From Candidatus Harpocratesius repetitus (lineage in GTDB: Archaea; Asgardarchaeota; Lokiarchaeia; Sigyniarchaeales; Promethearchaeaceae), in NCBI GenBank assembly GCA_021498095.1, contig JAIZWK010000001.1, positions 1,350,001-1,382,000 on the forward strand: a stretch of 32,000 nt of DNA. The letters run 5' to 3'. The notes below the pieces were generated by a model, which made no database searches, was not told the origin of the DNA, and saw only the letters and a list, made by a program, of their open reading frames with translations. The position numbers were made by a program, and so were the translations under genes. Below are positions 4,685-10,680 of the stretch, piece by piece. Within the stretch, counting starts at the first letter, position 1. Each line of letters begins with the position of its first letter.

Positions 4685-5278
4685 TCATCCAGTAATTTCA
4701 ACCACTTCGCTTCCGCGTGTGTGGAATTTGGCATCCAAATAGATTAGTAATCCATGACCTCCATGTTGGAATACTATAGAAACAGGAAAACTGGTTGCAT
4801 TTTCAATTAAAGTTTTTCTCACACAAACATAATAATTTTCTTGACATATTGGACATTTACTTTGAATCCATTTTATTCGATTTTTTTGAGCATTTTCAAT
4901 ATTTGATTTCATTGTGCTTTTAAAGCCTTCGAAAATATTTGTCATTCCCGAAAAAAAATTTTGGTAAATAGCCCCATAAGAATTGAAAAATTGTTCTATA
5001 CATTCTTCCAATATCGCTTCCATCATTTGATATTGAATTTCAACATCTGCCATGATAAAGAAGATAATTCCTCGATCTTTAATGAAAACCATTCGTCTGT
5101 TTGGTTTTTCAATATGTAAAAAGAATTTTTCTTTAGCCATTTTTCTTGCTGCTTCAATATCCATTGGAAATACGTTTGTAGTTGGGCTGGTCCATCTGAC
5201 AAAATTAGTATTTGTGTCTAATCCAATATCTATGCATAATATTGAATTTTGAAGGTGTTCATAACTAGCTAGTGGCAA
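4685..5278 (-). CDS. Hypothetical protein; possible longin/roadblock-like N-domain plus C-terminal CxxC...HxxH domain
   Basis: 197-aa ORF with TTG start and protein-like composition. The N-part alternates beta strands and amphipathic helices; the C-part is CPICQENYYVCV...FQHGGHGLLIYLDAKFHTRGSE. Fold is judged by eye only. Confidence 0.7.
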   Translation of the reverse strand: MPLASYEHLQNSILCIDIGLDTNTNFVRWTSPTTNVFPMDIEAARKMAKEKFFLHIEKPNRRMVFIKDRGIIFFIMADVEIQYQMMEAILEECIEQFFNSYGAIYQNFFSGMTNIFEGFKSTMKSNIENAQKNRIKWIQSKCPICQENYYVCVRKTLIENATSFPVSIVFQHGGHGLLIYLDAKFHTRGSEVVEITG

Positions 5279-5359
5279 TATTTATCCCTTTTTGTTTTTT
5301 GATAAATTAATTTATAATTATAGTTATTTAAGCATAAAAAAAAATGTAGCTGTTTTTAA

Positions 5360-5938
5360 TTAGGAGTCAAGAGTCTCTTCGATTTCAATTACTCTTTTTA
5401 GTTTCAAGTATATTTTCTGTTCTTTTAAGTAATCTTCATCTGAAATTTTTCCATCTGCATAATCTCTATCAATTGCATCCATTTTTTTTCGTAAAGCGGT
5501 TAATTTTTTTCTTTTTGCAGCTGTTTGTTTTCGTCGTTGGGCTTTGTGATAATTCGTAATTGCATCTTTAACTAGCTTTGCAACTTTTTTATTAGGATCA
5601 TTAACTGCTTTTTCTAAATGTGGAAGTGCAATTTTTAATTGATCTGGATTAGATTTACTTAATTCGAGTAAATTTTCTGCTACTTTTAATCGTTCTTCTA
5701 ATAAAGGGCTTGAAAGAGATTCTATTAATTTTGGAATTGCAACATTTTCTAAAATATCATCTAAATATGCTTCTACTTCAGAAACTAGTTTTTTAGGAAA
5801 TTCTTTTTTATACATTGGGATACGTTTATCTTTCATAACACCTATAAAAAGTAAGGGCATTTCTGCATCCCAATCCTTCATTTTTTCCTTTTCTACTAAT
5901 TGTAGAATTCTTCCATCATCTGTTCTAAAGATTTTCAT
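5360..5938 (-). CDS. HEAT-repeat / coiled-coil protein with SHOCT-like C-terminus
   Basis: Two HEAT-like units (AIPKLIESLSSPLLEERLKVAENL; ALPHLEKAVNDPNKKVAKLVKDAI), a basic coiled coil, then IDRDYADGKISDEDYLKEQK. Its start overlaps the top6A stop (ATGA at 5938-5935). Confidence 0.75.
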   Translation of the reverse strand: MKIFRTDDGRILQLVEKEKMKDWDAEMPLLFIGVMKDKRIPMYKKEFPKKLVSEVEAYLDDILENVAIPKLIESLSSPLLEERLKVAENLLELSKSNPDQLKIALPHLEKAVNDPNKKVAKLVKDAITNYHKAQRRKQTAAKRKKLTALRKKMDAIDRDYADGKISDEDYLKEQKIYLKLKRVIEIEETLDS

Positions 5939-7200
5939 ATCCAGTCTCCAGAATAAAGTTTATTTGGTAAATATGTATCAGTTAGGTATTCAATTCCATG
6001 AGAAGATAGCGCTTGTATTTCTGCTTTCATTTTTGTTTTCTTCATTAGTTCTAAATCTTCTTTCCATTTTTTATTTGATTGTACATACGGTTCAGCTATT
6101 ATATCATCTAATCTTTTCATGTCTACTTTGTTCATAGGAATACGGCAGCTATAATCTACACCATATTCATCTAAATCTCTAGAAAGTACACCTAAAAGGT
6201 GCATATCAGGAGTTGCTAAGAAAGGCGATTCATAGGACAGTCGTTTTGAACCACGAATATAAACTGAATAAATATAATGTCCATATGGATCTGCATCAAC
6301 AACACAGTAAGTAGGAAGGCGAAGATCTCTATTAATTTTCTTTAAAAACATACGCGTTGCTACATTTCCTACTCCTTCAGCTGTTAATGCAATACATGGA
6401 TATTTTCGCCACCATTTTTCTTCAATAATTCGCATCATTGCAGCATCTTTTTCTAAAACTAAGATAAATTCTGCATCTGATTCAATCACTTCTACTTGAT
6501 CAATCATTGGAGTAATTGACCAAGATCCTGAACCTTGGGCATCTAAATCGATAATTTCATTACCATCTTTAAGTCGCAACCGTCCAACAGCAGAACCTCG
6601 TGCTTTTGCTACGATTCCAGTAGAATTTCGTGTTGTTTTTAATAATGTTGATGCATCTTCAATACTTGCATCACTAAATTTTTGATCTTGAAAAAGATTA
6701 ACATCACCATAGTAAACTTCACGTTTTGTCATATGTTTCCTTTTTCGTAGCAATTCATGAATAATTTCCAGAACTTTCATTAAGCGAGCAGTTTCTTGAG
6801 CTGATGTTAAGGTTAGTAATGATTTATTTGTCGTTTTATGCCCTAGTAATAAAAGATCTTGTTTTTCATCATAAATAATATTAGATGCAGTTCGGCTGGG
6901 AATTTTAAAAGTAGGATATCCTGTTATTTTAATCTGATTGACTAGATCTAAAGCAACTTCGTTTATTCTATTTAATGCTTCATTCATGGATAATTCATCA
7001 ATTTTAACTGATTTCGGCGGTATTTCATATGTAGTTGCACCACCTTCTTTTAGCCTTTCTTCTAAAAGTCTTCGAACAGGAAGTAAATCTTTCATTTCTA
7101 AGTTTTCTTTTAATTCACGGAGTGGAGTAACTACTTTAGATTTTGCTTTCGCTTTTGTCTTTCGTGGTGTTTTTCTCCGTTTTGAGTTCTTTTTTGCCAT
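5935..7200 (-). CDS. top6A: DNA topoisomerase VI subunit A (Spo11 homolog)
   Basis: TKREVYY (catalytic Tyr region), TOPRIM motifs LVLEKDAA and VDADPYG, C-terminal KAEIQAL...YLPNKL. Confidence 0.96.
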   Translation of the reverse strand: MAKKNSKRRKTPRKTKAKAKSKVVTPLRELKENLEMKDLLPVRRLLEERLKEGGATTYEIPPKSVKIDELSMNEALNRINEVALDLVNQIKITGYPTFKIPSRTASNIIYDEKQDLLLLGHKTTNKSLLTLTSAQETARLMKVLEIIHELLRKRKHMTKREVYYGDVNLFQDQKFSDASIEDASTLLKTTRNSTGIVAKARGSAVGRLRLKDGNEIIDLDAQGSGSWSITPMIDQVEVIESDAEFILVLEKDAAMMRIIEEKWWRKYPCIALTAEGVGNVATRMFLKKINRDLRLPTYCVVDADPYGHYIYSVYIRGSKRLSYESPFLATPDMHLLGVLSRDLDEYGVDYSCRIPMNKVDMKRLDDIIAEPYVQSNKKWKEDLELMKKTKMKAEIQALSSHGIEYLTDTYLPNKLYSGDWI

Positions 7201-7215
7201 TTGACTGCTATTCTC

Positions 7216-10200
7216 CTAATTTGGGTTAAGTTTCCAAAAAGTTCGTCCACCTTGAATTGTTAATAATAGTTTTTTTTCTCGAGTTAGTTGTTTTAGTTTT
7301 AATTGAAGATAGCGCGCATCTTTTACATCTTTGATATCTAAAAGTTTAATTAAATCTTTGATATTCAACCATTTGTGGTTCTTCATTGTTTGCAAGATTA
7401 AATCAGTTGTAATTACTCTAATTTTAGATTTTGGTTTTATTAGTTTTTTAGGTAATGATGCTTCGTTAACTTTCATTGATTGTGGGAGCATTCTCTGTTT
7501 TTTTTCTGAAATCTTTGATTTCGAAGTTATCTTCTGCGTTTTTTTTATTGATATTTTTTTCTTTGTCGTTCTTATTTCAGATTCTGATTGAGAGATCTGA
7601 TCTTTCAATTTTATTACTTTTTTACTTGATTTTTTCTTGTTTGATTTAGATTTCCACTGTTCAATGATTTCATCTACTTTTTGAACTGATTTTGGTGCAC
7701 TTGTTAATGAACTTTTATGATTTACTGCCTTTTTATTTGAAACAATATCAGCTTCTGTTGATTTTAGATGAGATTCGTTTACTTTAATTTTATTAATACC
7801 TTTTTCTTCTTGAAATTCGTTATTTGATTGTAATTCTATCGGTTTTTGCTGTTTTCGATGTTTTATCAATTCTGCTTTAATTTCTTCTGCAGATGGGCCA
7901 ATAAATTCTTCTTTTTTTTCTTCCAATTGTTCTGGAACTTCAAGTTTTCCTTCTAATCTTCTTTGAATTTGCACTTCTAATTCTTCACGTGTAGGCGCAT
8001 TTTCTGAATCTATGTTTTGTACAATATTTACTAAAGATGTCACAAAAATGGGAATATATTTCTCAATCACTTTTGAACGCTTTCTACGGTTTTCTCTTTT
8101 TTGTTTTCTGTTTTGATAATTTCTGATTTTTCTTCCAATGGTTTCTAAACAATACTTAATTTCTTTTAAGAGAACTTCGTCTTCAGCTAATGCATTTTTT
8201 GATTGAGATTTGAACATTAAATGAACATAAGGTCCTGAAACATTTACTAAGATACGGATTGAACCTTTTGGGATTCCATTATCAAATGTATCAAGTTTAT
8301 AGTTTTTCCAATTGACCATTTGACATCCTTTCCAAATAGCACAATCTGAATTATCTCTCATTTTTGGAGTTCTATTTACATATCGCATTAAAACTTGCTG
8401 GGCTGTTTTTGCTTGAGGTATTTTTGGACTAATTGCGATTCCAGCTTCGACCACAAATGCTAGACCTTTTCCACTGGTCGGAGGTCGAGTATGTCCATAT
8501 ATAAAATCTTCTTCAATATTATGTAAGACATCAAATTTTTGAAATAAATTACGATATTCTTCAATTTCTGCATTTATATCTTCAAGTAGTAAATCTTTAT
8601 ATGAAATTTCGTTCGAAAAGTACAGAGGTTGAAGAAATTTATATAATATTCTGTAAGAAAAATTCTGAGCTTCATTTTCACTTAGTGAAATAATTGTTTT
8701 TTCCAAATCATGAAATAAATCGGTTCGAAATGCAGGGTTTAAGTTAAACTCTTTAATTAATGTCGTTTCTAATACACTTGCTCCAATAGGAACTGCAGGA
8801 TCTGAAGGAGGGCTCATATATTTTTGGGCTTTAAATGATTTAAACAAAGCTTCTGTTTGTTTTTGAGTTAAAGAATTAGGTCGAGCATTTGAGATTAATA
8901 GTTCCTTAACACCTTCTTCTATTTTATCTGTAATACTTACATCAGTAACTTCATTAGATTCTCCTAAAACGAAATTTTTAACAACATTTGATAATGTTTT
9001 TTTCATTTTTCCTAATTGTTTCAAATCAGAAGTAATCTCTTTTTCTAAAGTGGATATTTTTTTCTTTTGGGCTGAAATTTCCTTTTTAATTGAGAGTGTA
9101 CTAATTTTTTTTGCGATTTTCTTTATTTGGCGATTTCTTTGTTTAATACTGTCTTTTATTTTATTATAAGATTTAACTATTTCCCAATATTGAGTAAGAT
9201 TGTCTTGATTATCGATATGATAAATTACCCATTTCTCTCTTGGTTTTTTCGCTCTTCCAAAAATTCGTTTTTCCTTTCGCGCAAAATAAATTTTTTCTAA
9301 TTCATTATGTGCCCATGTAATAATTCCATGTGATAAATTTAATAGATTTAATTCGCGCTCCAGTTCAATTTCTGCATTAAATAAAATATCCTTTGCCAGT
9401 CCTGAACTTAATCTAACAAAATTATCTTGCAAAAAAGCACTGAGTGTAAGTTTATTTGAAGTTCGTAATAAATCTTGAAAATCCCCTATGTTTACTGAAG
9501 AAGGATGAGGTAGAGCATAAGTTGGTTCGCGTGGAAATCTAGAAACTCTCCTTGGATAAATTTCTTCATTCCCATAAGGATCTAAAAATATAATTGTAAT
9601 ATGGGGGTTCGTCAGAGCAGTCATTTGAATATAAGAATCAATGAATCCTTTTCGATATTTGACATTAATATAATGTAATCTGATATAAGTTCCGTGTTCA
9701 AATGGACATTCGATTTCGGTAGGGGGGACTACATATTCTTTATTGTTTTTTGAAGTTGTGTAAAATTGCGAGCAAATTCCATATATGTGGTTGATATCTT
9801 TACTCACTACTGTTATCGGTTTACCTGTTGTATTTTGCGCATCGCTGAAAGCACTGGGTGATCCAAATCCTTGAGATCCACGAGTTTGTCTTAATTTTTG
9901 TGATTTACTTGAAGCAAGATATTTTCCAAATTTTTCTAAATCAATTGGTGCCATTCCTGTACCATTATCAAAAATTTCGAAATCATATTCAAAGACTTCT
10001 TTCTTTGTTTTTGATGAATCAGCAAAAACTTCTTGCGCTTCTTTTTCAGTAAGCTGAATAATGACAAATGGTTCACGTTCTACAAGTACTTGTATTGGAA
10101 AAATAAAGTTTTTAATCCCTTCCATAATATTTTGGACTTCTTGAGCCCTTTCTTCGTCTTTTTTCTGCAGAAATCTTAATTTTTTAGCTTCTTCATCATC

Positions 10201-10680
10201 TTCAGGTATTTCTTCTTCTTTCTTTTTTATTTCATCATCAATTATTATTTCTTCGTCTTGTTCACGATCTTCTTGGATTAGTGCAATGGAACCATCTTCT
10301 AATAAAGAGTATCCTTCATCATCAACCATTTCTGAATTTAATTTTTCTTCTAATTTCTGTAAATCTTCTTCACTTACTCCACCTCTTAAAAATGATAAAT
10401 TTTGAAGTAACAAATCATCTTTAAGTTTAAAGGTATATTCTGGATGGCGTTTTGATTCTTTCCAATAAAAGGATTCTACTGCATCTAGACTGTTGTCTAA
10501 AAATTCAATGCAATATTGAGTATGTTTATTAAGTCCAAAATCAAAACCAACTAATTGAGTCCTTTTTCTGAAGAATTCAGCCACAGATCCCTGGCGAATT
10601 GTCTCAATAGGTGCTTCTTTAGTTGATGTTTTTTTATGAGAAGTGTCAGATTTTTTTGAGGTTGAAGATTTTCGTGCCAT
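7216..10680 (-). CDS. top6B: DNA topoisomerase VI subunit B, greatly expanded (1154 aa)
   Basis: SVAEFF...LVGF N-arm, GHKL motifs EFLDNSLDA, DNGTG, QTRGSQGFG, HGT; PHP plus H2TH; transducer motifs TRPP...FVVEAG, RYVNRTP, FKSQSK. Lies 15 nt upstream of top6A. Confidence 0.95.
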   Translation of the reverse strand: MARKSSTSKKSDTSHKKTSTKEAPIETIRQGSVAEFFRKRTQLVGFDFGLNKHTQYCIEFLDNSLDAVESFYWKESKRHPEYTFKLKDDLLLQNLSFLRGGVSEEDLQKLEEKLNSEMVDDEGYSLLEDGSIALIQEDREQDEEIIIDDEIKKKEEEIPEDDEEAKKLRFLQKKDEERAQEVQNIMEGIKNFIFPIQVLVEREPFVIIQLTEKEAQEVFADSSKTKKEVFEYDFEIFDNGTGMAPIDLEKFGKYLASSKSQKLRQTRGSQGFGSPSAFSDAQNTTGKPITVVSKDINHIYGICSQFYTTSKNNKEYVVPPTEIECPFEHGTYIRLHYINVKYRKGFIDSYIQMTALTNPHITIIFLDPYGNEEIYPRRVSRFPREPTYALPHPSSVNIGDFQDLLRTSNKLTLSAFLQDNFVRLSSGLAKDILFNAEIELERELNLLNLSHGIITWAHNELEKIYFARKEKRIFGRAKKPREKWVIYHIDNQDNLTQYWEIVKSYNKIKDSIKQRNRQIKKIAKKISTLSIKKEISAQKKKISTLEKEITSDLKQLGKMKKTLSNVVKNFVLGESNEVTDVSITDKIEEGVKELLISNARPNSLTQKQTEALFKSFKAQKYMSPPSDPAVPIGASVLETTLIKEFNLNPAFRTDLFHDLEKTIISLSENEAQNFSYRILYKFLQPLYFSNEISYKDLLLEDINAEIEEYRNLFQKFDVLHNIEEDFIYGHTRPPTSGKGLAFVVEAGIAISPKIPQAKTAQQVLMRYVNRTPKMRDNSDCAIWKGCQMVNWKNYKLDTFDNGIPKGSIRILVNVSGPYVHLMFKSQSKNALAEDEVLLKEIKYCLETIGRKIRNYQNRKQKRENRRKRSKVIEKYIPIFVTSLVNIVQNIDSENAPTREELEVQIQRRLEGKLEVPEQLEEKKEEFIGPSAEEIKAELIKHRKQQKPIELQSNNEFQEEKGINKIKVNESHLKSTEADIVSNKKAVNHKSSLTSAPKSVQKVDEIIEQWKSKSNKKKSSKKVIKLKDQISQSESEIRTTKKKISIKKTQKITSKSKISEKKQRMLPQSMKVNEASLPKKLIKPKSKIRVITTDLILQTMKNHKWLNIKDLIKLLDIKDVKDARYLQLKLKQLTREKKLLLTIQGGRTFWKLNPN

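Follow-up and report, generated by a model that had tools for sequence, protein, structure and literature searches.

The window, that is, the whole stretch of 32,000 nucleotides of DNA that was analysed, carries three consecutive genes on its reverse strand. The first, top6B (7216–10680), encodes a giant form of the Topo VI B subunit of 1154 aa and the second, top6A (5935–7200), an A subunit of 421 aa; both were identified from their open reading frames and from Pfam and NCBIfam matches, including Pfam Toprim for Top6A (E 4.5e-54) and NCBIfam NF003218 for Top6B (E 2e-94). The third gene, hereafter X (5360–5938), begins with an ATG, ends with a stop codon at 5360–5362 and, as read from its open reading frame and translation, encodes a 192-aa candidate Topo VI accessory protein, for which Pfam and NCBIfam scans returned no named family. 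The ORF coordinates confirmed the two features on which the preliminary description had based its proposal of a single operon: the start codon of X (5938–5936) and the TGA of top6A (5937–5935) overlap as ATGA, and top6B and top6A lie 15 nt apart.

A run of nine T residues (T9; 5336–5344, reverse strand) lies 16 nt past the stop codon of X and is followed by an AT-rich stretch and the next ORF. Oligo-T is an established archaeal terminator and, because of this known role in archaeal termination, the T9 run likely closes the top6B-top6A-X transcription unit. The ORF downstream of X (4685–5278, reverse strand) would encode a 197-aa protein with a TTG start, a weak match to a Longin domain (E 0.0045) and a CxxC motif; in Lokiarchaeum ossiferum its homolog follows X at a gap of 8 nt, while here the T9 run and the AT-rich spacer intervene. 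This ORF was considered as a part of the same system and rejected, given that its homologs follow X in the closest genera only and that the T9 run lies between the two genes.

Architecture and fold of the X protein

The AlphaFold2 (AF2) model of X, obtained with the family alignment, has a pLDDT of 90.6 and shows helices at residues 27–46, 49–75, 80–96, 98–111, 117–161 and 167–191. The N-terminal module (aa 1–56; 5771–5938, reverse strand) is formed by a beta-hairpin (residues 2–14), a short helix and helix 27–46, and is both the most conserved part of the protein and the predicted Top6A-docking element. It is followed by two helical repeats of armadillo/HEAT type (aa 57–131; 5546–5770, reverse strand), assigned from the family profile, from VIA-align and from HEAT_2 and HEAT matches in relatives, and then by a basic helix (aa 132–161) and a C-terminal helix with a sub-threshold SHOCT-like motif (aa 162–192), which together occupy 5363–5545 on the same strand and were delimited from the AF2 model and the charge.

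Judged by family profile and fold, the two HEAT-like units reported in the preliminary description are real and of the armadillo/HEAT type. The X family profile matched designed armadillo repeat proteins in the PDB over positions 57–131 (E 3e-11), and VIA-align superposed about 60–65 residues (X residues 71–138) on ARM/HEAT proteins with Z scores of 8–10 and rmsd values of 1.4–2.4 Å. According to both the AF2 model and VIA-align, these tandem helical hairpins form an alpha-solenoid, one of only about two repeats. Against the Pfam repeat profiles, the copy in the window reached 13.4 bits for HEAT_EZ (E 0.12) with respect to a cut-off of 27 bits; among 29 relatives, HEAT_2 was matched by six (best E 3.5e-5) and HEAT by four. 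Fold searches with the whole protein returned generic ARM/HEAT and helical-hairpin matches only (Foldseek best E 0.026; VIA-align best Z 9.9 over 62 residues). Residues 1–76 folded alone with a pLDDT of 95.8, and fold searches with the N-terminal module gave nothing specific (VIA-align best Z 6.5; Foldseek best E 1.7). Among the fold matches listed for X and for this module, none is related to a known partner of Top6A or Spo11, although such a relative could still exist.

The C-terminal part of X departs more from what had been described. Residues 132–161 have a net charge of +9, so the very basic character claimed for this region holds; the coiled coil claimed with it is undemonstrated, and in the AF2 model helix 117–161 folds back on helix 167–191 as an antiparallel helical hairpin. 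The SHOCT-like end amounts to a sub-threshold resemblance to the motif: in the window's copy there was no SHOCT match in Pfam at E≤1, nor at this locus in the genome scan at E≤10, and membership of this copy in SHOCT (PF09851) was rejected since the 27-bit cut-off of the 28-position profile was not reached. SHOCT was weakly matched by 6 of the 29 relatives (best E 1.4e-4).

X belongs to a conserved family confined to one order

A word-indexed search retrieved 41 homologs of X, every named one of which is from Promethearchaeota, including NEF87_001821 of Lokiarchaeum ossiferum. When 1.84 billion representatives were searched exhaustively with HMMER, 42 matches were obtained, which correspond to the X family down to about 26–40% identity plus a few generic HEAT-repeat proteins, and an ESM Atlas feature search likewise recovered the family's own Promethearchaeota clusters together with generic HEAT-repeat clusters. 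Among close relatives with unsaturated synonymous sites, the dN/dS of X was 0.05–0.23, similar to that of top6A, which indicates that X is under purifying selection. These values and the intact orthologs in about 138 genomes show that X is a real gene and not a chance ORF. A search for X fused within longer proteins found a 1202-aa generic repeat protein and nothing else, which argues weakly against the existence of a Top6A-X fusion.

The distribution of the family was surveyed by running its profile against 400 Asgard genomes, 154 from the window's order and 246 from outside it. Full-length X was confined to the window's order, which includes Lokiarchaeum ossiferum, and was present in 12 of 13 genomes of family f1, in the one genome of f2 (1/1), in 126 of 135 of f3 and in 3 of 4 of f4. 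G137 corresponds to Lokiarchaeum ossiferum, as its coordinates match those of the CP104013 locus, and the order thus contains the cultured Loki-type archaea. Outside the order, the 246 genomes yielded no full-length homolog; the profile matched them only weakly and in part, 27 times in all (E 1e-4 to 1e-8), on the repeat region and inside long ORFs.

Conservation along X peaks at residues 1–75, and Q13, W23 and E26 show little or no variation. Additionally, many species of genus g19, as well as G160 (g13) and G143 (family f1), carry short forms of 127–131 aa that keep the N-terminal module and the repeats and have no basic hairpin; all of these forms overlap top6A (examples at L050:2269-2661 in G188, L051:1937-2326 in G204 and L052:1703-2083 in G143). 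Judging from these sequences, at least two separate lineages have dropped the basic hairpin, which argues against a DNA-binding arm as the core function of X. A further variant of 304 aa (L053:2169-3083) shares only its N-terminal ~88 residues with the rest of the family, has an unrelated tail and overlaps top6A by 4 nt. From the short forms and this variant it follows that the N-terminal module, the predicted docking element, is the part that always travels with top6A.

X is linked to top6A

The genomic context of X was surveyed in the 154 genomes of the order by comparing, by eye, the coordinates of X matches with those of Top6A Toprim matches. X directly follows top6A, sharing its contig and strand, in 138 of 141 places, and it is present in 138 of the 140 genomes with a detectable top6A match; in the two top6A-bearing genomes without it (G262 and G155) top6A is cut by the end of the contig. 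Thus X is conserved in the top6 operon and co-occurs with top6A; this near-universal association in four families fits a top6B-top6A-X operon with X as its third gene, as had been proposed. One of the three non-adjacent cases is an assembly break (a contig-end fragment, G202:C55, that overlaps a piece on C149), while in G266 two ORFs, one of them with a GIY-YIG domain, separate top6A and X, and in G250 X is on another contig than top6A, behind a 403-aa ORF. The insert in G266 (C41, L046:1935-5161) is made up of a 203-aa ORF and an ORF for an 873-aa protein that matches a GIY-YIG nuclease domain at E 2e-7, and is possibly a mobile insertion.

At the junction itself, followed base by base in 34 loci, the X start was separated from the top6A stop by -10 to +19 nt in 32 and by 54–57 nt in the other two, and GGAGG-like motifs were present where a spacer exists. 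The genomes are related to one another, and the 138/141 count therefore overstates the independent support for linkage. Synteny extends over the whole neighbourhood in the closest genera (DHH, CoaBC, top6B, top6A, X, LeuRS, GlmS). Homologs of X with 31–40% identity are still found directly after top6A, followed by differing genes (YdjM-like, an Arf-type GTPase or a 255-aa ORF). The linkage therefore outlasts the surrounding synteny, and this is more telling than the count. As a separate observation, three genomes carry second, divergent Toprim Top6A-like frames of 508–716 aa (G160:C34, G156:C9 and G215:C31; E 1e-14 to 1e-25) with no adjacent X, probably the divergent extra Top6A copies of PMC12680538.

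Predicted complex of X with Top6A

A complex was predicted from a Top6A monomer and X with an alignment of 29 rows for each, paired by species. The prediction scored 0.74 (0.73–0.76 in three runs) with respect to 0.00 for the best of three controls; this mark is reached by 58 of 80 solved complexes and by 2 of 110 mismatched pairs, a calibration that is rough here because our own alignments were used. The contacts agreed by at least 97% between runs, with partner pLDDT values of at least 82. Such a confident interface supports, and does not show, binding of X to Top6A. No solved complex of this kind could have shaped the prediction, because the only sequence relatives of X in the PDB match residues 57–131, outside the interface.

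The predicted interface involves X residues 1–39 and Top6A residues 209–218, 237–244, 268, 292–294, 37, 43, 46 and 50. The predicted contact surface on Top6A (aa 209–244; 6469–6576, reverse strand), which includes interface residues 209–218 and 237–244, is an all-beta linker and strand just before the Toprim domain, and the Pfam all-beta domain match at residues 203–241 is weak. The residues at 37, 43, 46 and 50 belong to an N-terminal helix (aa 37–50; 7051–7092, reverse strand). The alignment to the Top6A of S. shibatae begins at residue 66, so this helix is outside the coverage of the solved archaeal Top6A. An additional N-terminal Top6A helix common to Asgard archaea and eukaryotes has been described as a possible partner interface (Brinkmeier et al., PMC9665070). 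On the side of X, the predicted interface residues were better conserved than the rest of the protein (0.70 vs 0.55, permutation p 0.002). On the side of Top6A, the strand 237–244 is equally conserved in f5 and f7, lineages without X, and because of this the docking site is not unique to X-bearing lineages.

Top6B size and the slot after top6A in sister orders

The sister-order lineages f5, f6 and f7 have no X, and their open frames with a Top6B transducer domain are of 1141–1353 aa, while those of four other Asgard classes sampled are of 505–694 aa. Giant Top6B is therefore class-wide and X order-specific. Relative to the Top6A of the window, identity is about 50% for f5 and f7 and 29% for f6, whose Top6A is divergent. 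In another Asgard class, a Top6B transducer lies in an open frame of 2293 aa (G307:C6:522196-522669), which may represent a fused or greatly extended Top6B, and a second Top6B of 564 aa is found 6 kb away.

Furthermore, in f5 and f7 a different gene, here called Y, is placed directly after top6A, overlapping its end on the same strand (L041:839-1486(-), L042:780-1466(-), L043:651-1478(-) and L044:1813-2652(+)). Y encodes proteins of 216–280 aa with a zinc finger of C2H2 type in the N-terminal part, an acidic central region and a C-terminal motif that is conserved. It was found in four of the five f5/f7 genomes and was absent from all 54 X-bearing-order genomes searched for it, and neither X nor Y was found in f6. 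Y thus occupies the same slot as X, in genomes with the same giant Top6B, but the proteins are unrelated: the zinc finger is a feature of Y, and alignment gave no homology between X and Y. Homology between Y and the 197-aa ORF downstream of X was rejected in the same way. In one of the Y loci (G123:C299; L044:2-1810) the top6A open frame is of 603 aa, with N-terminal tandem repeats rich in proline and lysine upstream of the usual start.

Discussion

All these data suggest that X is probably a lineage-specific accessory subunit of Topo VI that binds Top6A in one order of Lokiarchaeia. The linkage to top6A and its independence of synteny, the junction, the constant docking module, the predicted complex, the conservation of the interface and the purifying selection on X support this reading. 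The proposal of an undescribed accessory factor of Asgard Topo VI is in this way supported by operon linkage and predicted docking on Top6A; its second part, in which X would bind the insertions of Top6B and occur together with Top6B that has them, is not supported, given the giant Top6B of f5, f6 and f7, which lack X, and the predicted interface, which is on Top6A. The literature searched contains no mention of a third operon gene or subunit for Asgard Topo VI. Most likely, X represents a new protein family with a role of a kind known for eukaryotic type IIB enzymes.

According to this explanation, X would be co-transcribed with top6B and top6A and its translation coupled to the end of top6A, so that it would be made in step with the enzyme. 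The N-terminal 40 residues of X would dock on Top6A, with the beta-hairpin lying against strand 237–244 before the Toprim domain and the next helix packing on residues 209–218 and on the extra N-terminal helix 37–50. The two armadillo/HEAT repeats and, in most lineages, the strongly basic helical hairpin would then project from each Top6A protomer, giving an A2B2 enzyme with two extra arms, which most likely would add DNA contacts or recruit another protein. In this explanation we infer the physical binding in the cell, its stoichiometry and any effect on DNA binding or strand passage.

Several observations go against X being an accessory subunit. X is present in one order only, and the sister orders have an equally large Top6B and a Top6A about 50% identical to that of the window without having X; the 237–244 strand of Top6A is equally conserved where X is missing, so the site is not X-specific; and two genomes (G266 and G250) have X apart from top6A. 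Alternatively, X could be a passenger of the operon, a small helical-repeat protein co-transcribed with the enzyme for reasons of regulation or history and acting elsewhere without binding it, for example as a chromatin or nucleic-acid-binding protein. The sister orders manage without X, their slot after top6A holds a different gene or none, and the synteny of the whole neighbourhood in the closest genera means that part of the linkage reflects shared ancestry. However, the linkage persists where the flanks are rearranged and identity has dropped to 31–40%, and in 32 of the 34 loci the junction stays within -10 to +19 nt. In addition, the complex prediction (0.74 with respect to 0.00 for the best control, with rough calibration counts) and the conservation of X, which is highest at the predicted interface, argue for binding, and we therefore regard the passenger explanation as unlikely.

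A different role on the same surface has also to be considered, in which X binds Top6A as a regulator or assembly factor and not as a stable subunit. X could, for instance, keep Top6A in an inactive or monomeric state up to the engagement of Top6B and DNA, or its repeats could tether Topo VI to another machine. The junction, the complex prediction and the interface conservation fit this role as well as that of an accessory subunit, armadillo/HEAT repeats are a typical protein-protein adaptor fold, and the predicted contact is at the junction before the Toprim domain. The short forms, which keep the repeats and drop the basic hairpin, favour an adaptor over a DNA-binding role. On the other hand, coupled translation at a 1:1 position would suggest stoichiometric rather than catalytic amounts of X, and no candidate third party has been identified; we consider a role of this kind rather improbable. 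Finally, binding of X to the lineage-specific insertions or to the C-terminal extension of the giant Top6B, for which operon membership alone speaks, is very improbable, since giant Top6B is found without X in f5, f6 and f7 and the two features do not co-vary, X is coupled to top6A and not to top6B, and the model places its conserved module on Top6A.

The presence of Y in the slot that X occupies allows the accessory-subunit explanation to be extended. X and Y could be interchangeable third subunits, or the position after top6A could merely be a favoured insertion slot. We put forward, as a tentative proposal that is still doubtful, that lokiarchaeial Topo VI is a modular holoenzyme, in which lineage-specific third subunits (X in one order, Y in others) would dock on a Top6A surface that includes the N-terminal helix shared by Asgard archaea and eukaryotes. 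If true, the dependence of eukaryotic Topo VI and Spo11 on accessory factors would have a precedent in archaea.

Archaeal Topo VI is a textbook A2B2 enzyme and serves as a model for plant Topo VI and meiotic Spo11. To our knowledge, reports of accessory proteins of Topo VI are limited to eukaryotes. A conserved, operon-encoded partner of Top6A in Asgard archaea would show that extra subunits were gained on the archaeal side too. The Asgard Top6A and Top6B are the closest relatives of the eukaryotic proteins (PMC12680538, PMC9665070), and Asgard Top6A, as the nearest archaeal kin, carries the N-terminal helix proposed as a partner interface. The reach of this idea is limited by the confinement of X to one order, X not being found in the Heimdall-type lineages nearest to eukaryotes. 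It is directly testable, as two members of the order are in culture, Lokiarchaeum ossiferum and, by inference, Prometheoarchaeum.

With respect to known proteins, X resembles the armadillo/HEAT alpha-solenoids (designed ArmRPs, importin, beta-catenin) in residues 57–131, which match by profile and by fold. It differs from them in having two repeats only, flanked by an unrelated N-terminal beta-hairpin module and the basic hairpin, and in that the Trp/Asn ladder with which armadillo proteins bind basic peptides is not conserved, as judged by eye on a short motif. In plants and other eukaryotes, Topo VI requires, besides its A and B subunits, the non-catalytic proteins RHL1 and BIN4/MIDGET, both of which bind DNA in vitro and are described as absent from archaea and bacteria (PMC11302465). 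By analogy, X would add a basic, possibly DNA-binding arm to Topo VI, and it differs from them in being operon-encoded in one archaeal order and in having no family named by Pfam or NCBIfam, a comparison with RHL1 and BIN4 made by description only. In the Spo11 core complex, auxiliary factors likewise bind the homolog of Top6A, and some of their contacts are with its N-terminal helix (PMC9665070). X has no detectable sequence or fold relation to these partners (TOPOVIBL/Rec102-Rec104, Ski8), and it occurs with a full Top6B in an enzyme that looks like a true topoisomerase and not like a break-forming machine. Even so, in the predicted complex X would contact the corresponding extra N-terminal helix of Top6A, as the Spo11 partners do.
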